A DNA stretch of 64,000 nucleotides, taken from NCBI RefSeq assembly GCF_044324785.1, contig NZ_CP172128.1; one strand, written 5' to 3'. This stretch comes from Escherichia coli (lineage in GTDB: Bacteria; Pseudomonadota; Gammaproteobacteria; Enterobacterales; Enterobacteriaceae). Made by a program: the position numbers and the translations under genes. Below are positions 6,059-42,592 of the stretch, piece by piece. Under the pieces are notes generated by a model, which saw only the letters and a program-made list of their open reading frames with translations, searched no databases and was not told the DNA's origin. The stretch's first letter is position 1. Each line of letters begins with the position of its first letter.

Positions 6059-6096
6059 CTTAACGTACAATATTTTCCGTTTCCCAAACGGAGCCC
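6059..6096. repeat. Tn21-type 38-bp terminal inverted repeat
   Basis: reverse complement GGGCTCCGTTTGGGAAACGGAAAATATTGTACGTTAAG: GGG outer end, ACGGAAAATA core, TAAG inner end. Confidence 0.55.
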
Positions 6097-17171: not shown

Positions 17172-17192
17172 TTTTACACCTTGTTATTTTTG

Positions 17193-18523
17193 TAGACTGG
17201 CCCCCTGAATCTCCAGACAACCAATATCACTTAAATAAGTGATAGTCTTAATACTAGTTTTTAGACTAGTCATTGGAGAGCAGATGATTGATGTCTTAGG
17301 ACCGGAGAAACGCAGACGGCGTACTACACAGGAAAAGATCGCTATTGTTCAGCAGAGTTTTGAACCGGGAATGACGGTCTCCCTTGTTGCCCGGCAACAC
17401 GGTGTGGCAGCCAGCCAGTTATTTCTCTGGCGCAAGCAATACCAGGAGGGAAGTCTTACTGCTGTGGCCGCAGGAGAGCAGGTCGTTCCTGCCTCTGAAC
17501 TTGCTGCTGCCATGAAGCAGATTAAAGAACTCCAGCGCCTGCTCGGCAAAAAAACGATGGAAAATGAACTCCTTAAAGAAGCCGTTGAATACGGGCGTGC
17601 AAAAAAGTGGATAGCGCACGCGCCCTTATTGCCCGGGGATGGGGAGTAAGCTTAGTCAGCCGTTGTCTCCGGGTGTCGCGTGCGCAGTTGCACGTAATTC
17701 TCAGACGAACCGATGACTGGAAAGATGGTCGCCGCAGCCGTCACTCAGATGATACGGATGTGCTTCTCCGTATACACCATGTTATCGGAGAGCTGCCCAC
17801 GTATGGTTATCGTCGGGTATGGGCGCTGCTTCGCAGACAGGCCGAACTTGATGGTATGCCTGCGATCAATGCCAAACGTGTTTACCGGATCATGCGCCAG
17901 AATGCGCTGTTGCTTGAGCGAAAAACCGCTGTACCGCCATCGAAACGGGCACATACTGGCAAAGTGGCCGTGAAAGAAAGCAATCAACGATGGTGCTCTG
18001 ACGGGTTCGAGTTCCGCTGTGATAACGGAGAAAAACTGCGAGTCACGTTCGCGCTGGACTGCTGTGACCGTGAGGCACTGCACTGGGCAGTCACTACGGG
18101 CGGCTTCGACAGTGAAACAGTACAGGACGTCATGCTGGGAGCGGTGGAACGCCGCTTCGGCAACGAGCTTCCGGCGTCTCCAGTAGAGTGGCTGACGGAT
18201 AATGGTTCATGCTACCGGGCTAATGAAACACGGCAGTTTGCCCGGATGTTGGGGCTTGAACCGAAGAACACGGCGGTGCGGAGTCCGGAGAGTAACGGCA
18301 TAGCAGAGAGCTTCGTGAAAACGATAAAGCGTGACTACATCAGTATCATGCCTAAACCAGACGGGTTAACGGCAGCAAAGAACCTTGCAGAGGCGTTCGA
18401 GCATTATAACGAATGGCATCCGCATAGTGCACTGGGTTATCGCTCGCCACGGGAATATCTGCGGCAGCAGGCCAGTAATGGGTTAAGTGATAACAGGTGT
18501 CTGGAAATATAGGGGCAAATCCA
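17193..18523 (+). mobile_element. IS2 copy 1 (insC 17284-17649, insD 17607-18512)
   Basis: 1331 bp, IRL TAGACTGGCCCCCTGAATCTCCAGACAACC, right end ...GGGGCAAATCCA; 5-bp target duplication TTTTG on both sides. Confidence 0.9.
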
Positions 18524-18673
18524 TTTTGATAGTAAATTTACATATCAAAATAAATCATAAAATCGCTTTTTTTAGTGATAAAAACCTCAAAAACAAAAAC
18601 AATTAGTGATCAACATCTCATAAGTAGTACATTTATCAACCGTTCCATTAATGTTTCATTCTATCGCGAATTA

Positions 18674-19441
18674 GGTAATGACTCCAACTTATTGATAGTG
18701 TTTTATGTTCAGATAATGCCCGATGACTTTGTCATGCAGCTCCACCGATTTTGAGAACGACAGCGACTTCCGTCCCAGCCGTGCCAGGTGCTGCCTCAGA
18801 TTCAGGTTATGCCGCTCAATTCGCTGCGTATATCGCTTGCTGATTACGTGCAGCTTTCCCTTCAGGCGGGATTCATACAGCGGCCAGCCATCCGTCATCC
18901 ATATCACCACGTCAAAGGGTGACAGCAGGCTCATAAGACGCCCCAGCGTCGCCATAGTGCGTTCACCGAATACGTGCGCAACAACCGTCTTCCGGAGCCT
19001 GTCATACGCGTAAAACAGCCAGCGCTGGCGCGATTTAGCCCCGACATAGCCCCACTGTTCGTCCATTTCCGCGCAGACGATGACGTCACTGCCCGGCTGT
19101 ATGCGCGAGGTTACCGACTGCGGCCTGAGTTTTTTAAGTGACGTAAAATCGTGTTGAGGACAACGCCCATAATGCGGGCTGTTGCCCGGCATCCAACGCC
19201 ATTCATGGCCATATCAATGATTTTCTGGTGCGTACCGGGTTGAGAAGCGGTGTAAGTGAACTGCAGTTGCCATGTTTTACGGCAGTGAGAGCAGAGATAG
19301 CGCTGATGTCCGGCGGTGCTTTTGCCGTTACGCACCACCCCGTCAGTAGCTGAACAGGAGGGACAGCTGATAGAAACAGAAGCCACTGGAGCACCTCAAA
19401 AACACCATCATATACTAAATCAGTAAGTTGGCAGCATCACC
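18674..19441 (-). mobile_element. insAB: IS1 copy 2 (inverted relative to copy 1)
   Basis: 768 bp; insA/insB ORFs identical to copy 1; no flanking duplication. Confidence 0.9.
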
Positions 19442-19616
19442 CAAGGGGCCAGTCTAGCAGATTATGGTGCGCAGTTATACAACAGCAGTAATGAGGAGTC
19501 TACTATTTCTCTTGTTATGCCAGATGCAATTGAATGGAACGGAAAGAATACGCCAAGACGGCAATACATGATAAAATATATTGCCGTATTTAAATATTAA
19601 AATTTATTTTTGTAGA

Positions 19617-20024
19617 TTATCTGAATTTTCGGTGACCTTCAAGTTTTATATCGTTCATTTTATCCAGAGACTCACGTAATGATTCTATATCCCCGTCCTC
19701 AACTTTCTTTTTTGCAATATTGATTTCATGTTGTAGTTTTTTTAACTCTTCCTTATAACTATCTACAGAAACTTTATCATTAACATCTATCTTTTCAGGA
19801 ATAATATTCATAGAAGAATCTACAGATTTATCCATCATTTCAAGAGCATTTAATAGTGATGATTTATCATTGGAAGATTGTAGAATACTCATACTTTTGG
19901 CAAGAGACTGCATGTTTTTATCCAGGCCGGAAGCCAAAGATACGTTGCTGAGAGATAAAAAAATAGCTAGTACAGCACCTGAGAAAAATACCTTTTGTTT
20001 TTTCATTAATATATTCCTGTTCAA
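19617..20024 (-). CDS. cytochrome b562 family protein
   Basis: signal peptide plus four-helix-bundle-sized protein ending ...HRKFR, like the ...HQKYR C-terminus of E. coli cytochrome b562; alternative start at Met7. Confidence 0.55.
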   Translation of the reverse strand: MNRNILMKKQKVFFSGAVLAIFLSLSNVSLASGLDKNMQSLAKSMSILQSSNDKSSLLNALEMMDKSVDSSMNIIPEKIDVNDKVSVDSYKEELKKLQHEINIAKKKVEDGDIESLRESLDKMNDIKLEGHRKFR

Positions 20025-20204
20025 AGTTGATTATAGTTATGTCAATTTAAGTTTATTATTATGATTTTTTATTTTTGTACTATGAATCTCCTGTATGCTT
20101 ATATGTGCAGAAAATCTCATTTTATCAAGAAGAATATCAAATTTTCTCCGATACTTCTACATACTCCATCATTCATGCTCCTTTTATCCGTGCACCGTAA
20201 AACC

Positions 20205-20338
20205 CCGTCCTTCAGCGGGGATATAAGGCGCTGTTTTCCACCTAACCAGGTGTCTGCTGCTATTCAATGTATTGGCGGATGACGGATGCCGCCCGTTGAA
20301 GCAGGAACCCTCGTCCTTAGGGCGTGGAGGATGTCAAA
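20205..20338 (+). repeat. 134-bp direct repeat, copy 1
   Basis: ~97% identical to 28891-29024; contains short hairpins (CCCCG..CGGGG, GGCGG..CCGCC). Confidence 0.7.
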
Positions 20339-20439
20339 ATGAAAACTTGTGGTATGAATCAATCCATTCATCATCCTTTCGGATCATTGCATTCAGTATA
20401 ACGCTGGAAGAGCCTGGCAATATCACTGTATTGATGGTA

Positions 20440-21330
20440 TTACGCCATGAATTGCTTATTTCTTAAATACGACATGCACCACAGACAGGCTTTTCCTATA
20501 CCATCGGAACGAGCGGCAAGAAATAACTTGGTGGCGTGTTTATGTTCGCGCATTGGCTTTTTAAGCAATTTACCTCTGTTCAATAACGGCAATGCCAGAT
20601 GATGTGGAATATAACCAATACCGACGTTTTGTTCTATTAAGCTGATTGCCATGGCGAAGTCAGGAACAAAAATAGGTTTTTGTCCTTCCAACAACCAGGC
20701 TTGCATTGGGGGGAAGTTAACGGAGGTATCCCGGATACAAACCGCAGGATAATGACGCAATTCACTGTTTTCTAATGGATTCCGCTTCACTGCCAGTGGA
20801 TGAAGTGGGCTGACGACAAAATCCCATTCTATTTGTCCGACCGGTTCGCTAATGATGCCTTCACTGCTTGGTACTGCATGAGGAGCACCGTAGACCAGAT
20901 CAGCACGTTTACTGTACAGCGCATCCCAGCAGCCGTTGTATACTTCAATATCTACCGTCAGTGTTGTTGATGTGAATTGCCGTTCAAAATCTTGAATAAA
21001 TGACACCAGAAAATCACCAGGTATAATATTGTTCACCGCAATTGTCAGTTCACGCTCAATACCATCGTGAATCAGCACTGTGTTGCGCTTTAATGCATCC
21101 AGATCGCGGAGAATATTTTTGCTATGTTCGATGAAGTAACTCCCCGCCGGAGATAATTCAATATATCGTCCCTTACGAATGAACAGTTCAACGCCCAGGG
21201 TTTCTTCCGCTTTCTTCAGGGTGTAACTGATAGTAGAAGGGACTTTATTTAACTGTTCGGCTGCGGTGGTGATGTTCTGGTGTCTGGCGACCAGATGAAT
21301 AATTCGAATCGTTTCGTCTGAGATGAACAT
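20440..21330 (-). CDS. LysR-family transcriptional regulator
   Basis: 296 aa; N-terminal HTH (IRIIHLVARHQNITTAAEQLNKVPSTISYTLKKAEE) and LysR substrate-binding domain. Confidence 0.8.
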   Translation of the reverse strand: MFISDETIRIIHLVARHQNITTAAEQLNKVPSTISYTLKKAEETLGVELFIRKGRYIELSPAGSYFIEHSKNILRDLDALKRNTVLIHDGIERELTIAVNNIIPGDFLVSFIQDFERQFTSTTLTVDIEVYNGCWDALYSKRADLVYGAPHAVPSSEGIISEPVGQIEWDFVVSPLHPLAVKRNPLENSELRHYPAVCIRDTSVNFPPMQAWLLEGQKPIFVPDFAMAISLIEQNVGIGYIPHHLALPLLNRGKLLKKPMREHKHATKLFLAARSDGIGKACLWCMSYLRNKQFMA

Positions 21331-21407
21331 AAGGCTCCCTGGTCAGTGGTAAAGTGGCTGAATCTCTCCAGATTCAGCCGTAATCATTGCCTGAGTATAC
21401 CCAGGAA

Positions 21408-22628
21408 TTAGCGGTGTTGACTTGCCCGACTGAGAATCGCATACGCGATACATGCCACCAGAATGGAGTCAACTGAAGGGATCGTCGTCAGGGTGAATAA
21501 GCCTTTTACGGTCATAAAGCCAACCGCTGTGCCTGTGATCCATGCAGCGAATGTCAGTACTTTAACCTGTGACTCCTGAGTTAACACCGACTCTTGATAG
21601 CCATTACGGCGATAAAGGAAAAAGTCAGCGATATAAATTCCGGCAACTGGGGGAGTCGCGATACCCAGGAACAGCAGAAACGGAATAAACCACGCCATAA
21701 TATCCATACTGCCTACGATGGCGGAAAGGATACCCAGCGCAACGGTAATCTGCCATTTGGGAAAGCGGCTAAGCAGTGTGGAAACTACCAACGTCCCCTG
21801 GAACATATTGCCCGCATTACCGGTGACGCAGGCGAATATCAGCAACAGTGCTGCAGGCATAACCGCACCGAATACTGCCATAGCATTCAGTAAAGAGCCC
21901 TGGCCGCTAATGGCACTCGGCGTTGCACCCGCCCAGTATAGCAGAGGGTAGGCAACCAGAAACGTCATACCTGCGGCAATCAGAGCATGTTTTCGGTTAT
22001 GTACAAAACTACCGAAGTCGGGAAGTGTAGCAACCAGAACAATAATAGTGCCAACAACGGTGGAAACGGCGACACCTGTACTCATCTCCGCTATCGCTGC
22101 TGGCGCTGATACTTCGGTATGGGTTGCCACATAGAGTATATAACACAGCACCAGTGCGATAACCGGCACGGCGACCTGGGCAACTTTGCCCAGAATGGAA
22201 AAACCAAAGGCCGTAGAGGCGACAAAAATGACACAACCAGCTGCCACTAACAGTGCCAGTGGCGCTTCAATCCCATTCTGCGCCAGTAAGTCATGCACCG
22301 AATGACCAAACATATTAGCGGTAACGGCAATCCAGCCGAACAGACTTATAGCCATCAAAATATTAATGGCGATGGCCCCTTTTTCGCCAAATGAATATTT
22401 CACAATACCGTATGTTGGCAGGCGGGCTTTTTCTCCCACACTAATGGTGATGGCTGAAAGTAAGGTCAGAATGACGCCGCCTAATAGTACGACGCTAATT
22501 AAACTACCACTGGAAAGTTGATTGCCGAGGCTTGAGGATGACAACAGCACAGGTGTGACGGCAATACCCAGCAAAATCATGGTAATACGCAATCCTGATG
22601 CCGTATTCATATTATCTTCTTTACGCAT
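21408..22628 (-). CDS. NCS1-type (cytosine/purine/allantoin-like) permease, putative
   Basis: 406 aa polytopic membrane protein with a transporter-like profile. Confidence 0.5.
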   Translation of the reverse strand: MRKEDNMNTASGLRITMILLGIAVTPVLLSSSSLGNQLSSGSLISVVLLGGVILTLLSAITISVGEKARLPTYGIVKYSFGEKGAIAINILMAISLFGWIAVTANMFGHSVHDLLAQNGIEAPLALLVAAGCVIFVASTAFGFSILGKVAQVAVPVIALVLCYILYVATHTEVSAPAAIAEMSTGVAVSTVVGTIIVLVATLPDFGSFVHNRKHALIAAGMTFLVAYPLLYWAGATPSAISGQGSLLNAMAVFGAVMPAALLLIFACVTGNAGNMFQGTLVVSTLLSRFPKWQITVALGILSAIVGSMDIMAWFIPFLLFLGIATPPVAGIYIADFFLYRRNGYQESVLTQESQVKVLTFAAWITGTAVGFMTVKGLFTLTTIPSVDSILVACIAYAILSRASQHR

Positions 22629-22653
22629 AATATGTTTCCTTTATAAATGCGCG

Positions 22654-23043
22654 TTACATCGTGTGAAAATTCCCGGTGTATTTGCGCCAGCCCCCCAGTG
22701 CTGTAATCTCCTTCTGGCCTTCAGTCAGCCAGCTTTCTGCCAGTACGCCCAGTACTTCGCTACCATCGGCAAGTTTGATTTTTCCAATGGTCAGGCCTTC
22801 GGGTTCGTTCATTAACAGTTCGGCAAAACTGGCCAGAGGCAGTTGCCAGATTTCTACGTCTACGTGTGCTCCTCCTTCATTCACGCGGATCATTCCGGGA
22901 TGACGATCATTAATACTCCATAACCGGTAATGGGCGTCAGTTCGGTCTTCACGGACAAAAATACCGCCCGCTTTTTGCATATTTGGGTTGAGTTCCAGAC
23001 CGCGCATCAGCGTTCCGTTAACGGCTAAAAGTGTTGTAGTCAT
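22654..23043 (-). CDS. AIG2/gamma-glutamylcyclotransferase-like protein
   Basis: 129 aa with GGCT-like fold signature at the N-terminus; family assignment tentative. Confidence 0.4.
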   Translation of the reverse strand: MTTTLLAVNGTLMRGLELNPNMQKAGGIFVREDRTDAHYRLWSINDRHPGMIRVNEGGAHVDVEIWQLPLASFAELLMNEPEGLTIGKIKLADGSEVLGVLAESWLTEGQKEITALGGWRKYTGNFHTM

Positions 23044-23059
23044 TGTGTTCTCCAGAGAA

Positions 23060-24016
23060 TTAAAGGGTTATCCATGTTCCGCTCTGATGTGCCAGGGCTG
23101 CTTTTATGGTTTGCGGTGAAGTAATCAGTCCGCTGGCCTGTTTGCCTTGTTGCTGGCTGGCATTGATGAAATCAATAATGGCTTCCACTTTGGGTTGCAT
23201 ACTGCCGACACCAAACTGACCTTCCTGCAACAGCGTTTGAGCTTCGTAGACGCTGATAGCGTCGAGCCATTGTTGTTGTGGTGTACCAAAGTTAATCGCC
23301 ACTTTTTCTACACCGGTGGGGATCACCAGCAGATCAGCGCCTAACTGACTGGCGAGCAATGCGGAGGCCAGGTCTTTATCGATCACGGCTTCCACACCTT
23401 TCAGTTGTTGCCCGTCTCGCACCACAGGTATACCGCCGCCGCCGCAGGCTATAACCAGATATCCCTGGCGCACAAGGTGAGCGATGGTGTGGTGCTCAAT
23501 AATTTCCAGTGGCGCAGGAGAGGGAACTGTACGCCGCCAACCACGCCCGGCGTCCTCCATCAGCGTCCAGCCGAGTTGTTGTTGGCATTGTTGTGCTGTT
23601 TCTTCATCAAGAAACGCGCCAATCGGTTTACTGGGGCTGGCGAAAGCATCGTCATATGGGCTGACTCGCGTTTGTGTCACCAGGGTAATTACCGGTTTGT
23701 TTATGCCACGGCGAGCCAATTCGTTATGCAGCGCTTTCTGGAACATGTATCCAATGGCGCCTTGGGTATCACCCACGGCGTAATCCAGAGGAACCGGAGA
23801 AACTTCGTTACTGGCAAGTTCAGAGCGGCGCAGAATAAAGCCTACCTGCGGGCCATTACCGTGGGTTAGCACCAGGTCCCATCCGGCTTCAACCATATCA
23901 ACGATATGCTGCACGCTTTCCATTACTGCAACATATTGATCGGGAATACTATTGCGTTTATCGTCCTGAATGAGCGCATTGCCGCCAACCGCGACGACAG
24001 CCAGTGGCTTAACCAT
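23060..24016 (-). CDS. carbamate kinase-like protein (YahI/YbcF-type)
   Basis: AVVAVGGNAL ... THGNGPQVG amino-acid-kinase motifs; start taken at MVKPLAVVAVGG rather than the upstream ORF-track start. Confidence 0.75.
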   Translation of the reverse strand: MVKPLAVVAVGGNALIQDDKRNSIPDQYVAVMESVQHIVDMVEAGWDLVLTHGNGPQVGFILRRSELASNEVSPVPLDYAVGDTQGAIGYMFQKALHNELARRGINKPVITLVTQTRVSPYDDAFASPSKPIGAFLDEETAQQCQQQLGWTLMEDAGRGWRRTVPSPAPLEIIEHHTIAHLVRQGYLVIACGGGGIPVVRDGQQLKGVEAVIDKDLASALLASQLGADLLVIPTGVEKVAINFGTPQQQWLDAISVYEAQTLLQEGQFGVGSMQPKVEAIIDFINASQQQGKQASGLITSPQTIKAALAHQSGTWITL

Positions 24017-25433
24017 GATGGTTCTCCTTTGCGACGATCTCCGCCAGTTCACGTACAGCAGCGACAAAACAGGCCATCGGTGCAGTGGTGATCCCGGCAC
24101 CAATTTGTCCGACTCCCGCTTGTTTGTGGGCGATACCCGTATTGATGACCGGTAAAATGCCACGATCGGTCACTTTACACGCATCAATACCTGCTGCGGT
24201 GGGGGCAAAATTGAGGGCTGGAAGTGTAAATGCGGGGTTACCGCCGAGGGTGATTGCCTGCATCCGACGGCTGTTATTGGTGGCATCGGCAGGGGTGCCT
24301 CCCACAAATTTAACAATCGCCGGAGATGACGCCATCGCGAAGCCACCCACACCTGCGGTTTCAGTAATTGCGCTATCACCCAGGTCAGCAGCGGCGTCGT
24401 CAACGCCAAATCCGGGGAAGAACAGACCTTCAACTGCATTGGCAGGAGCCTGGAACCAGCGATCGCCAGTACCGGAAAGCCGAATACCAAAATTCACCCC
24501 GTTACGCGCCATCACCGTAACCATTGAACTGAACGGTACATTGGCGGCGGCATCCATCATTGCTTTACAGGCAGCCATCGACAAATTGAGGAAGAAGTGA
24601 TCGTTACCTGTGATAAATGCCACGACGCGCTGGATATGTTCCTGTGGAAGAGAGCAGGCCAGCAATGCCGGGAGCAGGCGCTTAATCAGCAAACCGGTAG
24701 CGGCAGCATTGCGGTTATGAACTTCATCCCCCATATGCAGCGCCTGCGCCATTAATGGCTTGAGTTCCAGCTCGCCGTGTTGTGCGATTGCTGCTTTCAT
24801 GGCCGGCGCCAGTTCATCACGCATCCAGGCCAGACGATTGAGAACTTCATCGTTATTGGCACCAAAACGGAGAACCTTACCCAGACCCTCATTGAAATTG
24901 CTAAAAGTACGATGGCCGTTGGTTTTGTTTTCCACCACCCATAATGGCATAGACGGGCTGATAATGCCTGCCATTGGTCCAACCGCGTGATAATGATGAC
25001 AAGGAGCAAGGTCGATTTCGCCTGCGTTTATCTGGTTTTCTGCGTCTTTCTGGCTTGTAGCCCAGCCTTCGTACAGCATGGCACCAATAATCGCCCCTTT
25101 TACCGGACCACACATATCTTCCCAGGCAATCGGTGGACCAGAGTGTAAAATGCGTTTTTGTTCAGCCATTTCGGGGATGGCTTCTTTAGCGAGCATGACA
25201 TCCACCAACACGGGCTGTGCTTCGAGATAACGTGTCATGGCGATTTGGTTGGCACTTTCTACCAGTGGATGGCGTAGTAATGACGCCAGAACCAAACCGG
25301 TGTCAATATCACCTTGTGCTGGCGGCTGCCAGTTGAGGGATATAGCATGCCCTCCTGCATGTTGAATATTGTCAGCAAAACTGTGTAGTCCCGCGTTCAC
25401 GACCTTCAAAGGCTGATTAAATAAGGTATTCAT
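24009..25433 (-). CDS. DUF1116 protein (YahG/YlbE-like)
   Basis: ~474 aa, conserved partner of FdrA-like and DUF2877 proteins; start taken at MNTLFNQPL. Confidence 0.65.
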   Translation of the reverse strand: MNTLFNQPLKVVNAGLHSFADNIQHAGGHAISLNWQPPAQGDIDTGLVLASLLRHPLVESANQIAMTRYLEAQPVLVDVMLAKEAIPEMAEQKRILHSGPPIAWEDMCGPVKGAIIGAMLYEGWATSQKDAENQINAGEIDLAPCHHYHAVGPMAGIISPSMPLWVVENKTNGHRTFSNFNEGLGKVLRFGANNDEVLNRLAWMRDELAPAMKAAIAQHGELELKPLMAQALHMGDEVHNRNAAATGLLIKRLLPALLACSLPQEHIQRVVAFITGNDHFFLNLSMAACKAMMDAAANVPFSSMVTVMARNGVNFGIRLSGTGDRWFQAPANAVEGLFFPGFGVDDAAADLGDSAITETAGVGGFAMASSPAIVKFVGGTPADATNNSRRMQAITLGGNPAFTLPALNFAPTAAGIDACKVTDRGILPVINTGIAHKQAGVGQIGAGITTAPMACFVAAVRELAEIVAKENHHG

Positions 25434-26989
25434 GCATTTAGCTCCTTTTTCTGCAACTGAGTCTGTGCAACGGTGCTGGCCCATAGCGCCGCCTGTGCAT
25501 TGCTGTTGGCAATGATGACGCCTGCATTTTGTAGTGAGCTTATCTGCTGACTGCGTATTTGCGGATCAGCTTCTGTTCCGCAAACGTGGGCAATCAGCAA
25601 CGGTGCATTATTCATGTCGATGTGTGAAAGTTGGTCCAGTAATTCGCTGACAGGCGTAGCGGAGGTGCCATAACCAAGTACAAGGTCGAATAACACAACG
25701 GCAGTATGTGAGTCGTTGAGTTCGTTGAGCAGACGTTGATTGCGCAGAGTCGGGTCGATCATTGGATGCGGTTTGCCACGGGTGAAATCATCGTCCCCCA
25801 TATCAATCAGTGTATGATCTTCACTTTGCCAGATATTTGCCAGAGCACGATTACCCGCAACTGGCGTATTGGAGGCGGCATGGAATCCCTTTTGTTGGCA
25901 GATAAGCTGAGCTTCGTAACAGAAGGTTCCTCCGGCGAAAACACCGCGTATCGCCTGGCGATGGACTGGCAGACTTTGGCAGGCGTTTTGTAACATTGTG
26001 AGATCGTCGCAGGAAACCTCGTTCTCGACAGCCGGAAGTGGCTGATCATTCAGTAACGCCACAGCGATGTCGGCGGCGCTGGCAAGTGTGGTGGCGGCAG
26101 TGATATTGGGACGTGCCAGATCATGCGGATTCGCCCCGAGGAAATTCACCACCACGGGTTTTCCACAAGCCTCGGCGCGCTCCAGAATAGTCCGGGCAAC
26201 GATCGGTGAAGGCGGTTTTGAAATAAGAACAATCACGTGAGTTTCATCGTCTTGTGCCAGCGCATCTAAAGCAAAGAGCATTGATATTCCACCAATCTCT
26301 TCACTGAGATCATGTCCGCCTGTTCCCAACGCCTGAGAAATACCCGCTCCGAGCTGGTCGATTCGGCAAGTCACTTCCTGTAGCCCGGTGCCTGACGCGC
26401 CAATAACACCAATTGCTCCGCGTTTCACCACATTAGCGAAGCCTAACGGAATGCCGTTAACAATGGCGGTTCCACAGTCAGGTCCCATTACGATACGCTG
26501 ACGTTCTCGGGCAAGCGTTTTGATGTATTTTTCCTGCCCGATACTGACGTTATCGCTGAACATCATCACGTTCATTCCGAGGTTTAACGCTTTAATTGCT
26601 TCGGCGGCGGCGTAGTCTCCCGGTACAGAAATGAGTGCCAGGTTGGCTTCGGGTTCAGCTTCCAGTGCCATTTCCAGGCTGACCTTTTCCGGTGATTTAA
26701 TGCCACAATCCGTTTCATCATCGGGTTTGCTGGTCAGACGTTGCTGGGCCAGTAGCAGTGCTTCATTGCAAATATCTTCTTCACCCATGACTGCAATCAC
26801 TAAATCATTGGGACTGGCGTTGATTTCGTTACCCAGACCCGCATCGCGCAATTGCTCGAGATTATTGGGTGTTCCCATGACGACCGAGGCCTGTTGAATA
26901 CCGGGCAACTTGCTGATTTGCGCGGAAATCTGCATCAGAGAAACTGAGTCCTGATAAAGATTACTGAAAACTTTATATTTAACTTTCAT
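25430..26989 (-). CDS. FdrA-like protein (YahF-type, succinyl-CoA-synthetase-alpha-like fold)
   Basis: ~519 aa, CoA-ligase/NAD-binding Rossmann-like N-domain; start taken at MKVKYKVF. Confidence 0.65.
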   Translation of the reverse strand: MKVKYKVFSNLYQDSVSLMQISAQISKLPGIQQASVVMGTPNNLEQLRDAGLGNEINASPNDLVIAVMGEEDICNEALLLAQQRLTSKPDDETDCGIKSPEKVSLEMALEAEPEANLALISVPGDYAAAEAIKALNLGMNVMMFSDNVSIGQEKYIKTLARERQRIVMGPDCGTAIVNGIPLGFANVVKRGAIGVIGASGTGLQEVTCRIDQLGAGISQALGTGGHDLSEEIGGISMLFALDALAQDDETHVIVLISKPPSPIVARTILERAEACGKPVVVNFLGANPHDLARPNITAATTLASAADIAVALLNDQPLPAVENEVSCDDLTMLQNACQSLPVHRQAIRGVFAGGTFCYEAQLICQQKGFHAASNTPVAGNRALANIWQSEDHTLIDMGDDDFTRGKPHPMIDPTLRNQRLLNELNDSHTAVVLFDLVLGYGTSATPVSELLDQLSHIDMNNAPLLIAHVCGTEADPQIRSQQISSLQNAGVIIANSNAQAALWASTVAQTQLQKKELNA

Positions 26990-27083
26990 GCTGTTACGCC
27001 TGTTCCATTCCGCCCGATAGCAAAATTCGGGCAAAGCATCCCCGTGTAGCCCCATAAACGGGCTACGGGAGAAAAGGTTGAAA

Positions 27084-27944
27084 TCAATTCATGGTGTTCA
27101 GGGTTCGAAATCCATGCAGCATTCCTGCAAGGCAATTTACTCCTGATGTTGCGCCAAATTGCATGATCTGTTCTGTACAGGATGCGATTGTCATTGCCGA
27201 TGCGCTCCCAACCAGTTGTGCGAGTAACCGGCAAATCGGTTCTGAAAAATGTCCCTGAAGCGCACGTTGCAGATAATGACGACTTATATCCGTGGTGTTG
27301 TGTGCATGTTGTTCAATTGCCTTCTGCAACCTGTATTGATGATTGGCAAGTGGTGCAGGGAGTTGCCATAACCAGAGGGCTGCCAGATAGCCCAGCAAAT
27401 AGTCATCTCCATCGGGCGTTAAGCCTTTACCAAAGCCGATCAGTTGGGGTACCTGGCGTTCCAGCGCATCTGGATGTTCCATAATATCTAATCCCTGGTG
27501 CGTGAGACTATCCGGCAGGTGCAATGTGCTTTGAACGTTATGCTCCAGACAAAATAAAAGCCGTTGCGATGCTATCGTGGGGTAGTGCTGGAAAACCAAA
27601 GGCAATGCCTCAAGAGTCAGCATTCCCCCCACAAATGGCGACTGCCAGAGCGTTGCGTTATCGAGCGCCACACAAAATCGAGGTGTCCGCAGTAAGCCTG
27701 GGGTTAACTGAATGGGATCTGAATGGGCAATCTCTCTTCGCCAGTCCCAACATTCAGGTAGCCAGACTCTGGCAGCATCAGGGAGATTCAGATACGTTTG
27801 CGCACACAACAGAGTGATGAATGTTCCCGCGTCTGAATACAGATTTACCGCATGTTTAAAAGCGCTATGTAGACGTAAATCTTGCGTTTCATTCTGCGGG
27901 AAAAGATATCCTAACGACGATGCACAAAGCGTAACCTGTACCAT
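27084..27944 (-). CDS. DUF2877 protein (YahE/YlbF-like)
   Basis: 286 aa; conserved third member of the FdrA/DUF1116/DUF2877 trio. Confidence 0.6.
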   Translation of the reverse strand: MVQVTLCASSLGYLFPQNETQDLRLHSAFKHAVNLYSDAGTFITLLCAQTYLNLPDAARVWLPECWDWRREIAHSDPIQLTPGLLRTPRFCVALDNATLWQSPFVGGMLTLEALPLVFQHYPTIASQRLLFCLEHNVQSTLHLPDSLTHQGLDIMEHPDALERQVPQLIGFGKGLTPDGDDYLLGYLAALWLWQLPAPLANHQYRLQKAIEQHAHNTTDISRHYLQRALQGHFSEPICRLLAQLVGSASAMTIASCTEQIMQFGATSGVNCLAGMLHGFRTLNTMN

Positions 27945-27949
27945 CGGCG

Positions 27950-28618
27950 TTAGCCTTCCAGACCTGCAATAATGGCTTTGGAATCAGTAACCCAACCGAA
28001 AATGGCACCTTGTGCTTTGATCATCTCAAGGGCGTATTTCTGGAATTCCGGGAAATAGGAGCCAACGCAATCTTCCGGTATGATGCATTCATAGCCACGG
28101 TCATTTGCTTCACGCACGGTGGTGGTTACGCAAACTTCGGTAGTCACGCCACAAACAATAAGTGTCTTGATACCACGCTTTTGCAAAATCAGATGTAAGT
28201 CGGTTTGATAAAAAGCGCCTTTACCGGGTTTATCAATCACAGGTTCGCCTGTCACTGGATACAGTTCAGGAATGATGTCATGACCTGCCTCACCCCTGAC
28301 CAGAATGCGTCCCATCGGTCCTGGTTCACCAATAAAGGTTTTTCCGCCGCGCGTCAGTTTGGCTGATGGGCAGTCGCTTAAGTCTTCACGATGGCCTTCA
28401 CGGGTATGAATAACCATAATTCCTTTTTGACGTGCGGCTACCAGAACTTCTTTACATGGTGCGATAGCCGTGCGAACCAGTGAAACATCATTACCCAATG
28501 CTTCTCCAAACCCTCCTGCTTCGACAAAATCACGTTGCATGTCTATCATGATCAGTGCCGTTGTGCACGGATCAAAGGGTAATTCAAAGGGTTGAGCCTG
28601 AAAAATGGATATCGTCAT
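27950..28618 (-). CDS. isochorismatase-family cysteine hydrolase
   Basis: ALIMIDMQRDF ... catalytic-Cys region IVCGVTTEVCV typical of isochorismatase/N-carbamoylsarcosine amidase family; start at MTISIF with GGAG RBS. Confidence 0.75.
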   Translation of the reverse strand: MTISIFQAQPFELPFDPCTTALIMIDMQRDFVEAGGFGEALGNDVSLVRTAIAPCKEVLVAARQKGIMVIHTREGHREDLSDCPSAKLTRGGKTFIGEPGPMGRILVRGEAGHDIIPELYPVTGEPVIDKPGKGAFYQTDLHLILQKRGIKTLIVCGVTTEVCVTTTVREANDRGYECIIPEDCVGSYFPEFQKYALEMIKAQGAIFGWVTDSKAIIAGLEG

Positions 28619-28890
28619 GACAAATCTCCAGTATATATTGTTTACTGGTGACGAGTATTCAATATAAAGGTGACCCACAACAGAAAAAAAAGTTGTTTTA
28701 CAGGAGCGAATATTTTTGAGGTGTCTAAATGTTGTTATGAAAAATGTGATTTATATCAATCTATGACATTCATAAACAACTTTTTTCAAATGTTTATTTG
28801 TTTAATATTAAAAAAATTGTCGATATATTGTGATATTAATCATCCTATTTGGCAGGGATAGTGCTGATTTTTAACAAATACCCCTTACAT

Positions 28891-29024
28891 CCGTCCTTCA
28901 ACGGGGATATAAAGCGCTGTTTTCCACCTAACCAGGTGTCTGCTGCTATTCAATGTATTGGCGGATGACGGATGCCGCCCGTTGAAGCAGGAACCCACGT
29001 CCTTAGGGCGTGGAGGATGTCAAA
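28891..29024 (+). repeat. 134-bp direct repeat, copy 2
   Basis: ~97% identical to 20205-20338, same orientation. Confidence 0.7.
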
Positions 29025-29076
29025 TACCCGCCCTCATTGAGAGAGAAGCTACGAGATTTTCGCTAAGGGACACAGG

Positions 29077-30560
29077 TCATACGGGAGATGGCGGTTCCCA
29101 GCGTTTATCCTGCTCCGGCGGAGGCAGTGATGCGTCATCGTTGCTGTTCGCCGCGATATAATCGCGGTAGTAGCGTTCACTTCCTTCCCGGTGATGATCC
29201 ACATCCGGTCGTGTAATCCTGTAGTCTTCGTGACCGGTACGGCCTGTCACATTATGCCAGGCAACCATTTCAGCAAAGACCTGGTTAAATTGTTTGTCGT
29301 TTCCTTCTGGTTCAAAGCCCATTCTGGGATCACGCTCAAACAATACAGGTGCAATCAAATCCAGTTTATCTGCCAGCGCATTGCGGTCATGGTGATTACG
29401 GAAAACAACCCTGTCACCATAATCCGTACAGACAAACTCTCCCGTCCGACGGTCACGGAAACGAACACTCCCGTTCTTCTGCAAACGGGCCTCGAGATCA
29501 CCGGTATTACCGTATACCGGCGTTCCGCCCGGTTCACAAAGCACGACACAGCGGTCTGTTGTTGTTGTGCGTGACTTGTCTTTACGGCGATCGCGATAAT
29601 CCCAGCCTCTCAACTGCGATACAGCAGCCCTGTCTCCCTGAGCAGCCTGAATTTCGACCCACTGACGGTAAGAGGGTGGATACCACTTCCCGTCAGCAAT
29701 AAGTTTCTGTCGCTCATCCCTGATGTCTTCTTTCAGCCTGATCAACGCCTGCATTCGCTGAACTTCTGCAATGTGATAATGCAGCTTACGTAATGCCGGA
29801 TCATCGTACTGCGCACGAATGTGTGACTTCCGCAGACGGCATGCCTGATGAATTTCCCGACAACGTTCCCCATTACGCAGATCTGGTTTACGCCATTGTT
29901 CACGCCATGCCAGATAGCGGGCACGCAGGTCAGCACGGGCCTCAGCTCTGGCTTCACGTCGCTGCCGGCGCAGCATTGGGTCACGTTTACTGCTGACCCC
30001 GTACCTGTCACTGACAGCCAGCTCCGGGTTATAGCGACTTTCAGGTTGCACCCTGTCAAACAAATCTGCTGGGGCACTCACAAAAGGTCCGGCCTGTGGC
30101 TCTGCACGCCCCAGAGTCAGATCAGGATGAATGCTGCTGGCCTTCACCGGCGTTTGCTCATGATTAAAGGCATCAACGACAACAAGCCCGTGATGTTGTT
30201 TCTGTAGCATCAGTCCCTGTTGTGCAAACAGCTCATGACAACGCTGCCAGGTAAACTCACCCTGTGTGATCATTTCTTCAATCTGAGGGCTACAATGGCT
30301 GATGCTGTATCCCCACAGACTTTCTTTATCAGAAAACAGTTCGCGTTTGATAGCCCCCTGCGGCCCCGTGCCTGTACGCATACGGTGCCATTCTTTATCG
30401 GTCGCAGGACAGCTCTCCATACGACGACCACGGAAGCGTTCTGTTGGCGTAACCTGGCGGAAAATATCTGTTGGTACAGGCTGCCAGCCACCATCGAGTT
30501 GATTCACATTGTCGAGCGTCAGCAGTGACCATACGCTGTCAGCACGAACGGGAGTCTGGT
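29077..30560 (-). pseudogene. NikB-like MOBP relaxase, C-terminal ~490 codons only
   Basis: N-terminal part of the translation (..TPVRADSVWSL..QPVPTDIF..) aligns with the C-terminal region of the nikB at the window end; relaxase catalytic domain absent. Confidence 0.55.
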
Positions 30561-30613
30561 TATGATATTTTTCGGATCCCGGTGAAAAAAGAGAGAAACA
30601 TGCAGATACCATG

Positions 30614-30732
30614 CATATCCATATGTTTGGCATCTGCATATGACAGGCATACGCATATCTCACACATCTGCATATCTATAACATATACATATGTATCACA
30701 TCTGCATATACTAAACATATATAAAAGCCGTC
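30614..30732. repeat. seven tandem 17-bp direct repeats, core CAT(C/A)NNCATAT
   Basis: core motif starts at 30614, 30631, 30648, 30665, 30682, 30699, 30716: exact 17-bp period; directly upstream of vagC. Confidence 0.7.
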
Positions 30733-30748
30733 TTGCCAGGAGGAAGAC

Positions 30749-30979
30749 ATGAGAACCGTATCTATTTTCAAAAATGGCAATAACCGCGCGATCCGTCTGC
30801 CCCGCGATCTGGATTTTGAGGGGGTGAGTGAGCTGGAGATTGTACGGGAAGGGGACAGAATCATTCTGCGTCCCCTCCGCCCGAGCTGGAGCTCATTCCT
30901 GGAGCTAGAAAAGGCCGATCCGGGCTTTATGACGGAACGCGAGGACGTTGTCTGCGACGAAGGACGATTTAACCTGTGA
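30749..30979 (+). CDS. vagC: VagC/VapB antitoxin (AbrB/SpoVT domain)
   Basis: 76 aa, MRTVSIFKNGNNRAIRLPRDL.. swapped-hairpin antitoxin; start/stop overlap with PIN toxin. Confidence 0.85.
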   Translation: MRTVSIFKNGNNRAIRLPRDLDFEGVSELEIVREGDRIILRPLRPSWSSFLELEKADPGFMTEREDVVCDEGRFNL

Positions 30980-31392
30980 ACAAGATCTATATGCTCGACA
31001 CGAACATCTGCTCGTTCATCATGCGCGAGCAGCCTGAAGCAGTGCTTAAGAATCTGGAGCAGGCGGTGCTGCGCGGTCACCGTATAGTGGTCTCGGCCAT
31101 CACCTACTCCGAGATGCGCTTCGGCGCCACCGGTCCAAAGGCATCGCCACGCCACGTGCAGCTGGTTGACGCGTTCTGCGCCCGTCTCGATGCCATCCTG
31201 CCCTGGGATCGCGCTGCGGTGGATGCAACCACGGAGGTTAAGGTGGCGCTGCGCCTCGCCGGCACGCCGATCGGTCCGAACGACACGGCGATCGCCGGGC
31301 ACGCCATCGCCACCGGGGCAATACTGGTGACGAATAATGTGAGAGAGTTTGAGCGGGTGCCTGGACTGGTACTGGAAGACTGGGCAGGATAA
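30976..31392 (+). CDS. vagD: VagD/VapC PIN-domain toxin
   Basis: 138 aa, PIN-domain acidic residues (MLDTNICSF.., ..VTNN..). Confidence 0.85.
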   Translation: MNKIYMLDTNICSFIMREQPEAVLKNLEQAVLRGHRIVVSAITYSEMRFGATGPKASPRHVQLVDAFCARLDAILPWDRAAVDATTEVKVALRLAGTPIGPNDTAIAGHAIATGAILVTNNVREFERVPGLVLEDWAG

Positions 31393-31395
31393 AGG

Positions 31396-31430
31396 AGTAA
31401 GGCCGCCCCCGACGGCCTTACCACTATTTT
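31396..31430 (+). terminator. rho-independent terminator-like hairpin after vagD
   Basis: GTAAGGCCG-CCCCCGAC-GGCCTTAC followed by T-rich tract. Confidence 0.5.
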
Positions 31431-31899
31431 GCGATGTCAGTCGTATTCATTTTCAGCGTTAAAAAAGGGCTCTATACGAATACGTGTATCAGCGTGAGTA
31501 AGTTTCGGCGGCCTGATAAATCCACTATTTCCCAGCTGGACAGCCAGTTGCCACATGGCATCACTACGGGGAATGCTACGATAATTCCTCTCTGTGAGGA
31601 AAGCGGCATAATCCTGATGCCCGAACGTCATGAGCACCTGTCTGATGAACTTGTGTGACCCACCGTCATTTTTAAGACATTGCATCAGCAGTGCCTGCTT
31701 CTGCCGGTCATCGGTTATTTTGGTGGAGAACCTTATCAGGGCTTGCTGGCTGAGAAGTGGTGCCTCAGAGAGCAGGGCTTCATCTTTTTCCCAGAGCCAG
31801 TTCAGGATACTGATACAGACTTCATCTGCAATCTTATCGCCATTCAGAATTAAACGAGTAATCCCCAGGTCAAACTGGTCATCAGCAAATAAAACAAGC

Positions 31900-33208
31900 T
31901 GAACCGCCCCGGGAATCCTGGAGACTAAACTCCCTGAGAAAGAGGTAAACAGAATGACTAAAAATACTCGTTTTTCCCCCGAAGTCCGTCAGAGGGCGAT
32001 TCGTATGGTTCTGGAAAGTCAGGGCGAATATGACTCACAGTGGGCGGCAATTTGTTCCATTGCCCCAAAGATTGGCTGTACACCGGAGACTCTGCGTGTC
32101 TGGGTACGCCAGCATGAGCGGGATACCGGAGGCGGTGATGGCGGGCTCACCACCGCTGAACGTCAGCGTCTGAAAGAGCTGGAACGTGAAAATCGTGAAC
32201 GCGCCGCAGTAACGATATCCTTCGCCAGGCTTCCGCTTATTTTGCGAAGGCGGAGTTCGACCGCCTCTGGAAAAAGTGATGCCACTGCTGGATAAGCTGC
32301 GTAAGCTGTACGGGGTCGGACGGGTATGCAGTGAACTACATATTGCCCCGTCAACGTATTACCACTGTCAGCAACAGCGACATCATCCTGATAAACGCAG
32401 TGCCCGTGCGCAGCGCGATGACTGGCTGAAGAAAGAGATACTGCGCGTATACGATGGGAATCATCAGGTATATGGTGTGCGTAAAGTCTGGCGTCAGTTG
32501 TTACGGGAAGGAATCAGGGTAGCCAGATGTACAGTGGCGCGCCTCATGGCGGTTATGGGACTTGCCGGTGTTCTCCGGGGTAAAAAGGTCCGCACTACCG
32601 TCAGCCGGAAAGCCGTTGCCGCAGGCGACCGCGTAAACCGTCAGTTTGTGGCAGAACGTCCTGACCAGTTGTGGGTGGCTGATTTTACTTACGTCAGCAC
32701 ATGGCAGGGGGTCGTCTATGTGGCGTTCATCATTGATGTGTTTGCCGGATACATCGTGGGGTGGCGGGTCTCATCGTCTATGGAAACGACATTCGTGCTG
32801 GATGCTCTGGAGCAGGCGTTATGGGCCCGTCGACCGTCCGGCACAGTCCATCACAGTGATAAAGGTTCTCAGTATGTATCGCTGGCCTACACACAGCGGC
32901 TTAAGGAAGCCGGATTACTGGCATCAACAGGAAGTACTGGTGACTCGTATGACAACGCGATGGCGGAGAGCATCAATGGCCTTTACAAAGCGGAGGTAAT
33001 ACACCGTAAGAGCTGGAAAAACCGGACAGAAGTGGAGCTGGCCACACTCACGTGGGTGGACTGGTATAACAATCGACGATTGCTGGAAAGGCTGGGCCAT
33101 ATCCCACCGGCAGAAGCAGAAAAAGCTTATTATGCTTCCATCGGAAACGATGATCTGGCAGCCTGAGTTCACAGATAAAACACTCTCCAGGAAACCCGGG
33201 GCGGTTCA
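31900..33208 (+). mobile_element. IS3-family insertion sequence (orfA 31954-32295, orfB 32276-33166)
   Basis: terminal inverted repeats TGAACCGCCCCGGGAATCCTGG / CCAGGAAACCCGGGGCGGTTCA; orfB with DDE-type transposase hallmarks; orfA/orfB overlap. Confidence 0.8.
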
Positions 33209-33556
33209 AACACCCTTTCTTCATCCATCCTGCGCGCTCCATCTGATAATGTTCTGACAGGTAAAAATCAAATTCTGTATGATTTTTGTGTTATCGATTT
33301 ATGATAATATCAGATATTTTTTCATTACTTATGATTAAAATCATATCTAATATGAATTTATGTGTATTGCTTAATTATCATATCACCTGCCCGTTTCCCG
33401 CCGCGCAGATCCGGTTTCCGGCTGAAGTGGATCCAGACCTGATTTGTTGCTGAGTATCGGTAAAAGTGCGGCTTATAAGCTATTCTGAAACATGGCAACT
33501 GAATCTGGGCTGTATAATTCCGGCAAGTGTCATCTGTATTTAAAGGACGTGTGAGT

Positions 33557-34009
33557 ATGAAATTTATGGAATGTGCTGTCCGGGATGTGATTTATGGGAC
33601 CAATGTCCGTCTTGTCAAACCGGTCAACATTTATGAATGTGAACTCGGGGACAATGTGTTTGTCGGCCCCTTCGTTGAGATACAGAAAGGCTGTGTCATT
33701 GGTAGTGGAAGTCGGATACAGTCGCACACGTTTATTTGTGAGAACGTAACACTGGGGGAGAAGTGCTTCATTGGTCATAACGTGACGTTCGCCAACGATC
33801 TGTTTCGTTCAGGAGCACCAGATCCGTCACCGGATAACTGGATCAGCATTACCCTGGGGGATTCGGTTACTGTTGGCAGTGGAGCCATTATTCTGTCTCC
33901 GTATATATGCAGCGGAGCTGTTATTGGTGCGGGTTCAGTTGTGGTAAAACCGATTGAGAACAAAGGCATTTATGCAGGAAACCCGGCAAGACTGCTCAGA
34001 ATATTATGA
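33557..34009 (+). CDS. hexapeptide-repeat (left-handed beta-helix) acetyltransferase
   Basis: repeated [LIV]G-x4 hexapeptides (IGSGSRIQ, IGHNVTFAND, VGSGAIILSP, IGAGSVVVKP). Confidence 0.65.
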   Translation: MKFMECAVRDVIYGTNVRLVKPVNIYECELGDNVFVGPFVEIQKGCVIGSGSRIQSHTFICENVTLGEKCFIGHNVTFANDLFRSGAPDPSPDNWISITLGDSVTVGSGAIILSPYICSGAVIGAGSVVVKPIENKGIYAGNPARLLRIL

Positions 34010-34013
34010 AAAA

Positions 34014-34042
34014 GAAAAGGGCCGTTACTGGCCCTTTTTATC
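34014..34042 (+). terminator. rho-independent terminator
   Basis: AAAAGGGCCGTTACTGGCCCTTTTTATC. Confidence 0.6.
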
Positions 34043-34277
34043 AGAGGTAGGTCTGTGAATACGGCAGGTGTACAGAAATCGACTGCCGGGGATCGATTTC
34101 CAGGGCCGCCCGGTATTCTGCGTCAGTGATATCACCTTTTTTCGGTAAATAACCGAGAGCATCGTTTCCCAGCCCTGACAGTATGCGTATTCTGGCGATC
34201 CGGAAATCAAACAGGCTGTCCATCATACCATGCTCCGGAAATGCGGGAGGAGTGGCCAGATAGGCAGGTTTGACCAT

Positions 34278-34405
34278 TGTCCTAAAGTGCCTTCAGGAAG
34301 AGATAATCGGGAAGCGCCTTCACTGATCGAAAGTTGATTTTCAAGAACCGTTCTGACAGCTTCGGCTTTGAACTCTTTAGAGTAACGTTGGGTTTTTCTG
34401 CTCAT
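34278..34405 (-). pseudogene. IS3-family orfA-like N-terminal remnant
   Basis: MSRKTQRYSKEFKAEAVRTVLENQLSISEGASRL.. fits the IS3-family orfA N-terminal pattern; no intact downstream transposase. Confidence 0.3.
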
Positions 34406-34763
34406 TATTAGCTCCTTCTGATGCCATTCTATTTCAGGAAGGAGTGTCCGTTAAACCCAGGCTACCTCATAGTTCATTTTCTGTTGATGCGCTGAAGATC
34501 ATTTCATTCAAAATACTGACATCTTTCATAAAGACCTCCATTTTATGTCGGGGAAAAATAAAGCACAGATAAACTATATTTTCACATTTAATTTACAAAT
34601 TGGTGGTATCAGTCACAAATAACTTACAGGTCCGGTAATATCGGTCTGTTAGTGATATTTACTGAAAATGATGGAAAGATATTGATAACGTGGTTGCCAT
34701 AACCAATGCTTCAGGGAAGCCGATATGGTTAATGTCATTACAATCGTCGCCACAGTTGCCTGT

Positions 34764-36094
34764 TAGACTGGCCCCCTGAATCTCCAGACAACCAATATCA
34801 CTTAAATAAGTGATAGTCTTAATACTAGTTTTTAGACTAGTCATTGGAGAGCAGATGATTGATGTCTTAGGACCGGAGAAACGCAGACGGCGTACTACAC
34901 AGGAAAAGATCGCTATTGTTCAGCAGAGTTTTGAACCGGGAATGACGGTCTCCCTTGTTGCCCGGCAACACGGTGTGGCAGCCAGCCAGTTATTTCTCTG
35001 GCGCAAGCAATACCAGGAGGGAAGTCTTACTGCTGTGGCCGCAGGAGAGCAGGTCGTTCCTGCCTCTGAACTTGCTGCTGCCATGAAGCAGATTAAAGAA
35101 CTCCAGCGCCTGCTCGGCAAAAAAACGATGGAAAATGAACTCCTTAAAGAAGCCGTTGAATACGGGCGTGCAAAAAAGTGGATAGCGCACGCGCCCTTAT
35201 TGCCCGGGGATGGGGAGTAAGCTTAGTCAGCCGTTGTCTCCGGGTGTCGCGTGCGCAGTTGCACGTAATTCTCAGACGAACCGATGACTGGAAAGATGGT
35301 CGCCGCAGCCGTCACTCAGATGATACGGATGTGCTTCTCCGTATACACCATGTTATCGGAGAGCTGCCCACGTATGGTTATCGTCGGGTATGGGCGCTGC
35401 TTCGCAGACAGGCCGAACTTGATGGTATGCCTGCGATCAATGCCAAACGTGTTTACCGGATCATGCGCCAGAATGCGCTGTTGCTTGAGCGAAAAACCGC
35501 TGTACCGCCATCGAAACGGGCACATACTGGCAAAGTGGCCGTGAAAGAAAGCAATCAACGATGGTGCTCTGACGGGTTCGAGTTCCGCTGTGATAACGGA
35601 GAAAAACTGCGAGTCACGTTCGCGCTGGACTGCTGTGACCGTGAGGCACTGCACTGGGCAGTCACTACGGGCGGCTTCGACAGTGAAACAGTACAGGACG
35701 TCATGCTGGGAGCGGTGGAACGCCGCTTCGGCAACGAGCTTCCGGCGTCTCCAGTAGAGTGGCTGACGGATAATGGTTCATGCTACCGGGCTAATGAAAC
35801 ACGGCAGTTTGCCCGGATGTTGGGGCTTGAACCGAAGAACACGGCGGTGCGGAGTCCGGAGAGTAACGGCATAGCAGAGAGCTTCGTGAAAACGATAAAG
35901 CGTGACTACATCAGTATCATGCCTAAACCAGACGGGTTAACGGCAGCAAAGAACCTTGCAGAGGCGTTCGAGCATTATAACGAATGGCATCCGCATAGTG
36001 CACTGGGTTATCGCTCGCCACGGGAATATCTGCGGCAGCAGGCCAGTAATGGGTTAAGTGATAACAGGTGTCTGGAAATATAGGGGCAAATCCA
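34764..36094 (+). mobile_element. IS2 copy 2
   Basis: ORFs identical to copy 1; 5-bp target duplication CCTGT on both sides. Confidence 0.9.
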
Positions 36095-42548: not shown

Positions 42549-42592
42549 AGAAAACCTCTTTGACTTTAAAAACAATCAATTAAAATTAAATA

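Follow-up and report, generated by a model that had tools for sequence, protein, structure and literature searches.

Homologous recombination between long identical direct repeats is established, and the IS1-flanked r-determinants of R plasmids are IS-bracketed segments that undergo RecA-dependent deletion or tandem amplification. Among IS2-type elements, an IS2-like composite transposon of ~210 kb and its "megacircle" were described in Burkholderia thailandensis E264, and experiments showed that the circle forms in a transposase-dependent manner (Ocasio and Cotter 2019, PMC6350997). The pathway and features of IS2 itself, including inverted repeats of 42 and 41 bp, are also described (PMC3299598). 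Here, we analyzed a pair of IS2 copies in a window of 64,000 nucleotides from Escherichia coli (NCBI RefSeq assembly GCF_044324785.1, contig NZ_CP172128.1). Judged by alignment, the window is part of an IncK2/Z-type conjugative plasmid that is almost identical to pLH10-b-1-A from poultry E. coli, and the accessory region of the plasmid carries colicin B/M, an eit-type iron ABC transporter, and ccdAB.

The IS2 pair and the DNA it brackets

The two copies, their target duplications, and the neighboring genes are arranged as follows.

16308 to 17171, minus strand: endonuclease/exonuclease/phosphatase-family gene (PF03372, 62 bits)
17188 to 17192 and 18524 to 18528, no strand: TTTTG, target duplication of IS2 copy 1 (flanking sequence)
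17193 to 18523, plus strand: IS2 copy 1, 1331 bp, with IRL at 17193-17234, orfA at 17284-17649, A6G slippery site at 17601-17607, orfB at 17607-18512, and IRR at 18483-18523
18524 to 34763, no strand: interval between the IS2 copies, 16,240 bp, with annotation mapped from pLH10-b-1-A (99.99% identical stretch) and pF1022-2
18674 to 19442: IS1, inside the interval
Also inside the interval: cytochrome b562 gene
20440 to 28618: LysR, cytosine permease, arcC, DUF1116, fdrA, DUF2877, and cysteine hydrolase cluster
29077 to 30663: TraI-like ORF
30749 to 31392: vapB/vapC (alias vagCD), a toxin-antitoxin pair
About 31900 to 33208: IS3-family IS
33557 to 34009: acyltransferase gene
About 34000 to 34470: IS600-like remnant
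34759 to 34763 and 36095 to 36099, no strand: CCTGT, target duplication of IS2 copy 2 (flanking sequence)
34764 to 36094, plus strand: IS2 copy 2, 1331 bp, with IRL at 34764-34805, orfA at 34855-35220, A6G at 35172-35178, orfB at 35178-36083, and IRR at 36054-36094

The initial annotation had described two identical IS2 copies in direct orientation and had named an exact alignment of the two as the check that could refute this. That comparison gave 0 mismatches over 1331 bp with both copies on the plus strand, and the match ends precisely at the IS2 ends, extending 0 bp beyond them in either direction. Such perfect identity could be due in part to consensus polishing of repeats during assembly. 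The placement of a catabolic cluster (20440-28618) and vagCD (30749-31392) within the bracketed 16 kb is likewise correct according to the relative's annotation mapped over. An Rfam scan gave a sole match, to the ALIL frameshift pseudoknot, which belongs to another IS3-family element within the interval.

Judged by their ends and encoded proteins, both copies are complete IS2 elements (IS3 family, IS2 group). The element length agrees with the ~1.33 kb of IS2, and the terminal inverted repeats are imperfect, with an IRL of 42 bp and an IRR of 41 bp that are identical to those of K-12 IS2A at 42/42 and 40/41 positions, respectively. The overlap of orfA and orfB holds the motif A AAA AAG (17601-17607 in copy 1) in the orfA frame, with orfB in the -1 frame. 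The products score above the cutoffs of IS2-specific NCBIfam models (OrfA versus NF006928, 276.4 bits, cutoff 229; OrfB versus NF006918, 706.5 bits, cutoff 597), and their domains (HTH_Tnp_1, HTH_21, rve, and rve_3) include the DDE integrase core. Both copies thus appear to be transposition competent. K-12 IS2A (NC_000913, 381260-382590) is likewise 1331 bp without indels, has a 5-bp target duplication, and encodes an OrfA identical at 121/121 residues, but it differs by 56 nucleotide substitutions with 0 gaps (95.8% identity) and at 11/301 OrfB residues. As matches of ≥99% occur in many records, the IS2 found here is, by alignment, an isoform common on enterobacterial plasmids and other than the K-12 allele.

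Target duplications, empty sites, and the arrival of the two copies

Each copy was said to have its own 5-bp duplication, and this was borne out: TTTTG and CCTGT are each present once at an uninterrupted site in pLH10-b-1-A, and the duplications are therefore real rather than chance repeats. A single CCTGT at empty site 2 is also found in pN17S1545-2. The comparison with relatives that the initial annotation had proposed was made by empty-site reconstruction, in which the two IS2 copies were taken out of the window together with one duplication apiece. Against pLH10-b-1-A, the remaining 61,328 bp form a single alignment block containing 12 mismatches and 3 gap openings, so that this plasmid is colinear with the window, lacks both IS2 copies, and diverges from the window plasmid by 0.024%. 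Among PLSDB records, site 1 is empty and contiguous in 30 of the 31 having that DNA, and site 2 is empty in 11.

Since the outer flanks of the two copies differ and a near-identical colinear relative has intact single target sites, we consider it very probable that the pair arose by two separate, recent simple IS2 insertions after divergence from pLH10-b-1-A, through ordinary IS3-family transposition. In this pathway, OrfAB transposase would be made via -1 frameshifting at A6G, and IS2 would form first a figure-of-eight and next a minicircle, whose integration yields a 5-bp target duplication; the window holds the ends, the A6G motif, and the intact ORFs required for these steps. As the copy-out pathway keeps the donor in place, one copy may have descended from the other. 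An IS2 copy identical to this pair is present on at least one other plasmid, from Salmonella, and identity alone is therefore no proof of copy-from-copy descent.

The same arrangement might instead reflect a composite transposon that came into the plasmid as one IS2-16 kb-IS2 unit, given that accessory genes lie between two complete, directly oriented IS2 elements and that in Burkholderia thailandensis an IS2-like pair behaves as a composite element (PMC6350997). However, no target duplication is common to the outer ends (TTTTG on the left and CCTGT on the right), each copy having its own matching pair, and the cargo is not foreign, as the interior and the DNA on either side run colinearly in pLH10-b-1-A, in which both sites are empty. 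A composite-transposon origin is exceedingly improbable and, on the alignment with pLH10-b-1-A, already refuted, in support of the initial annotation, which had favored separate insertions. A composite insertion by an inverted IS1 pair enclosing IS2 copy 1 was also considered; no common duplication surrounds that pair, and so there is no evidence for it.

The identity of the copies could also be explained by gene conversion, which is known to occur between IS copies within one replicon, acting on old insertions rather than recent arrivals. Both copies are absent, however, from a plasmid so little diverged that 1331 bp would be expected to show only ~0.3 differences; the identity thus needs no conversion, and we regard this explanation as very unlikely.

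When each IS2 with its flanks was searched by BLAST against PLSDB and 5,426 complete E. coli genomes, neither site was occupied in any PLSDB plasmid or any of those genomes, and a search of metagenome and GTDB genome contigs for exact 34-mer junctions, two per collection, returned nothing. Apparent full-coverage occupied-site matches in pF801-2, pPK8275, and pPK8261 were rejected as piece-joining artefacts, the sites being empty on local re-alignment and IS2 lying elsewhere. That neither insertion is in any other record of the collections searched, and that IS copies are a classic source of assembly error, would fit an artefact by which one or both copies were misplaced or duplicated or two slightly different copies were polished to one consensus. 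Against this, canonical IS2 termini abut exact 5-bp duplications of sequence that is single copy in relatives, which misassembly would not produce, and elsewhere the window is colinear with pLH10-b-1-A. Such an artefact is highly improbable, and two separate, recent insertions remain our preferred reading, with none of the observations speaking against this structure.

Probable effects at the insertion points and potential for rearrangement

Between the start codon of the 16308-17171 gene and the IRL end of IS2 copy 1 are 21 bp, and the gene is therefore cut off from its native upstream DNA. Just past the insertion point in pLH10-b-1-A is a promoter-like site, a weak consensus match that is not enriched over shuffles; a promoter scan of the occupied window for this gene found none. 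IS2 copy 1 probably uncouples the adjacent nuclease/phosphatase-family gene from its promoter and may silence it. IS2 copy 2 is in noncoding DNA, its IRR end lying 628 bp upstream of ccdA (36723, mapped from the pLH10-b-1-A annotation).

The copies are long (1331 bp), 100% identical repeats on the same strand of one replicon, with a start-to-start spacing of 17,571 bp. Because such repeats recombine, the bracketed 16 kb can soundly be expected, as the initial annotation had held, to be prone to loss or amplification through homologous recombination, and the pair would be a substrate for RecA-dependent deletion or for duplication of the 17,571-bp unit in tandem. Deletion would leave a single IS2 between TTTTG and CCTGT. 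Since loss of the interval would take vapBC along, this module may counterselect deletion segregants. No record of PLSDB, the 5,426 E. coli genomes, or the scanned metagenome and GTDB contigs has an IS2 junction at either site, such as would mark a deletion (TTTTG-IS2-CCTGT) or a duplication or circle (CCTGT-IS2-TTTTG); no natural derivative could be found there, because no other record has either parent insertion. Two plasmids with an apparent junction between IS2 and the site 2 right flank, as a deletion would yield, were rejected: site 2 is empty in Salmonella pN17S1545-2, and in E. albertii pEA7_2, IS2 is followed by 97 bp without a window match before homology returns at 36326, which is not site 2.

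It is conceivable, but we think improbable, that the pair forms a nascent IS2-type translocatable unit from which transposase excises a 17.6-kb circle, so that the cluster and the addiction module move between replicons. Transposase would act on the IRR of one copy and the IRL of the other, or on a single copy in the manner of the B. thailandensis megacircle, and the circle, composed of one IS2, the carbamate-kinase/fdrA cluster, and vapBC, could insert again beside other IS2 copies.

Significance and comparison with known IS-bracketed segments

The IS2 pair is real but ordinary mobile-element biology of an already known kind, with nothing novel. It represents two IS2 hops of very recent date in an IncK2/Z-type plasmid associated with poultry, documented against a near-isogenic empty-site reference, and has little weight beyond bookkeeping. 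The configuration predicts structural variants, namely, loss of 17.6 kb or a tandem duplication involving the metabolic cluster and vapBC, and the pair is likely to give rise to assembly breaks and size heterogeneity when such plasmids are assembled or typed.

The arrangement resembles the IS1-flanked r-determinants of R plasmids in that a dispensable plasmid accessory segment lies between long identical direct repeats, but here the bracketing came from two independent insertions, the interval contains a toxin-antitoxin pair, and no product of deletion or amplification was observed. It resembles the B. thailandensis E264 element in that two directly oriented IS2-type elements bracket cargo, and a circle of one IS plus cargo is the topology of the possible 17,571-bp circle; the E264 element, however, is ~210 kb and has a different IS2-like element.

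Two identical IS2 copies and their empty sites

The IS2 pair is real and precisely delimited. By exact comparison and with a repeat finder, its two members are 1331 bp each, lie on the same strand and show 0 differences; the shared sequence stops exactly at both termini, with 0 common flanking bases. They are 17,571 bp apart start to start and enclose 16,240 bp, so that the initial annotation's description of identical, directly oriented copies around some 16 kb with the catabolic cluster and vagCD (here vapBC) was borne out, every position being equal over 1331 bp.

Features of the IS2 pair
17193-18523, IS2 copy 1
17188-17192 and 18524-18528, target 5-mer TTTTG of copy 1
17284-17649, orfA, 121 aa, protein identical to K-12 InsC
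17601-17607, A AAA AAG window, orfA frame, inside the orfA/orfB overlap
17607-18512, orfB, 301 aa, -1 frame, 11 substitutions relative to K-12 InsD
34764-36094, IS2 copy 2
34759-34763 and 36095-36099, target 5-mer CCTGT of copy 2

The sequence identifies the element as an IS2 isoform. It is 95.8% identical to IS2A, the K-12 reference (56 mismatches, no indels), matching it at every base of the 42-bp left end and differing by 1 base in the 41-bp right end. OrfA scored 276 bits with the "IS2 repressor TnpA" model (cutoff 229) and OrfB 706.5 bits with the "IS2 transposase TnpB" model (cutoff 597); the Pfam domains are HTH_Tnp_1, HTH_21, rve, and rve_3. Published IS2 has set inverted-repeat lengths and an A6G frameshift yielding OrfAB, and moves via a figure-of-eight and then a minicircle with IRR as the donor end (PMC3299598); our copies agree with it in inverted-repeat lengths and frameshift site. 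Enterobacterial plasmids widely carry copies at least 99% identical to this isoform; over the whole IS, one match on a Salmonella plasmid reaches 100% identity.

Across all 64 kb, the window is colinear with pLH10-b-1-A, an E. coli plasmid (NZ_CP100531.1; IncK2/Z, MOBP, MPF_I) from pooled poultry faeces in Switzerland. With both IS2 copies and one of each 5-mer taken out, the remaining 61,328 bp aligned to it as one block at 99.976% identity (12 mismatches, 3 gap openings); both sites are therefore empty in that plasmid, with a single target 5-mer each. Hence, the 5-bp repeats are transposition-generated duplications, one pair for each copy, as had been claimed. As the interior is present in this near-identical plasmid that lacks both copies, these 16 kb are older on the plasmid than either IS2, and both insertions are younger than a very recent common ancestor.

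Of the 31 PLSDB records with that DNA, 30 have site 1 uninterrupted, Vibrio tapetis and Providencia plasmids among them, and site 2 is uninterrupted in 11 records. Neither the 72,556 plasmids of PLSDB nor 5,426 complete E. coli genomes showed IS2 at either site; a few seemingly full-coverage occupied-site matches proved on local alignment to be piece-joining artefacts. Scans of metagenome and GTDB contigs, for two exact IS2/flank junctions in each collection, gave no match.

The discordant duplications and the empty-site reference establish two separate insertions and no composite transposon, in agreement with the initial annotation. IS3-family elements are copied out while the donor stays in place, so one copy may have given rise to the other; equally possibly, both were derived from identical IS2 copies at other places in the host. 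Their perfect identity needs no special explanation, since the inter-plasmid divergence predicts about 0.3 differences over 1331 bp.

Other mobile elements and repeats

Further elements and repeats in the window
~3644-4980, third IS2-group element, also in pLH10-b-1-A
10490-10674 (~10.5 kb), 185-bp IS2-like fragment, also in pLH10-b-1-A
15085-15853, 18674-19442, and 40901-41668, three IS1 copies, all common to pLH10-b-1-A
20205-20338 and 28891-29024, 134-bp direct repeats (131/134 identical)
29077-30663, minus strand, 528-aa ORF
~31900-33208, separate IS3-family IS
49215-49533/56171-56490, 50837-51334/57191-57686/60525-60874, and 59339-59466, leading-region repeats

The third IS2-group element has the orientation of the pair and only ~71% overall identity to IS2, and its final 106 bp (4875-4980) match the IS2 right end at every base, making it a mosaic, one without an evident 5-bp duplication. 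The first two IS1 copies are inverted and 100% complementary and share no outer or inner duplication; between them lie an endonuclease/exonuclease/phosphatase-family gene and, since its insertion, IS2 copy 1. The colicin B activity gene cba is split by the third copy, which is bordered by a 9-bp duplication, AACTATTAC (cba fragments at ~40236-40664 and 41664-42575, versus the intact cba of Escherichia albertii pEA7_2).

IS2 is also present in the 1 to 2 kb that precede ccdA in pEA7_2 and Salmonella pN17S1545-2, though not at the same positions; IS2 insertions thus seem to accumulate in this region. Plasmid pPK8275-145kb (NZ_CP080166.1) has two inverted IS2 copies (5149-6480 and 20001-21332) of another allele, 98.3% identical to ours; its break is equivalent to 34256-34264, with the left DNA inverted on one IS2 and the right DNA on the other, an arrangement suggestive of an IS2-mediated event in which ~13.5 kb of sugar-utilisation genes was inverted or inserted.

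The 134-bp repeats lie on either side of the LysR-to-cysteine-hydrolase cluster. They occur at 168 places in 86 PLSDB plasmids, pAPEC-O2-ColV (NC_007675) included, and at two places in 14 of 15 plasmids among the matches listed; the repeat thus looks like a conserved border of the cluster. Rfam gave no match for the repeat. Between the cluster and vapBC, the 528-aa ORF, absent from the pLH10-b-1-A gene table, has a middle domain resembling TraI (PF22863, 40 bits) and is probably a leftover piece of a relaxase, or a pseudogene. The separate IS3-family IS, which lies inside the 16-kb interval, is marked by an ALIL frameshift pseudoknot (32234-32350, plus strand; Rfam RF01497, 107.8 bits). The leading-region repeats (ssb, psiB, ardA, Rpn-family gene) are 100 to 500 bp and 83 to 96% identical; a tandem array of 12-bp units (GGAATACAGCAG-like) and 220- to 300-bp internal repeats lie where pLH10-b-1-A has its Rpn-family nuclease gene.

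Neighbouring genes and recombination potential

Gene next to copy 1
16308-17171, minus strand, endonuclease/exonuclease/phosphatase-family gene (PF03372)

Copy 1 sits upstream of this gene, its IRL end 21 bp from the start codon, and IS2 transcription is directed away from the gene. On the strand that matters, pLH10-b-1-A has a single promoter-like site, just past the insertion point, and it is weak and not above shuffled expectation; the occupied window has no such site for the gene. Given so weak a match, silencing by copy 1 is a reasonable guess only. Copy 2 lies in non-coding DNA 628 bp upstream of ccdA and is predicted to have no effect on its neighbours. On its other side, ~34000-34470 matches IS600-family transposase DNA of Shigella and E. 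coli plasmids (query 11-208) and by eye encodes an IS3-type OrfA N-terminus on the minus strand, which identifies it by sequence as an IS600-like remnant.

We infer that RecA-dependent unequal exchange has a textbook substrate in this pair. Deletion would yield one IS2 bordered by TTTTG and CCTGT, and duplication would create the junction CCTGT-IS2-TTTTG. The former would take out an IS1, cytochrome b562, vapBC, another IS3-family element, an acyltransferase, and the LysR/cytosine permease/carbamate kinase/DUF1116/fdrA/DUF2877/cysteine hydrolase cluster; in the relative's annotation, none of these has a replication or transfer function. Since vapBC lies inside, segregants retaining the deleted plasmid alone would be without the antitoxin, and vapBC may plausibly brake deletion, much as toxin-antitoxin systems stabilise dispensable regions.

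In Burkholderia thailandensis, direct IS2-like elements give rise, in a transposase-dependent manner, to a "megacircle" made up of one IS and the DNA between the elements (PMC6350997). Our pair is likewise direct and could in principle form such a circle from a 17.6-kb unit; the probability of this is low. The pair is entirely ordinary and already known in kind: two recent hops of a well-known IS into a conjugative plasmid of poultry type, within an accessory region rich in IS elements.
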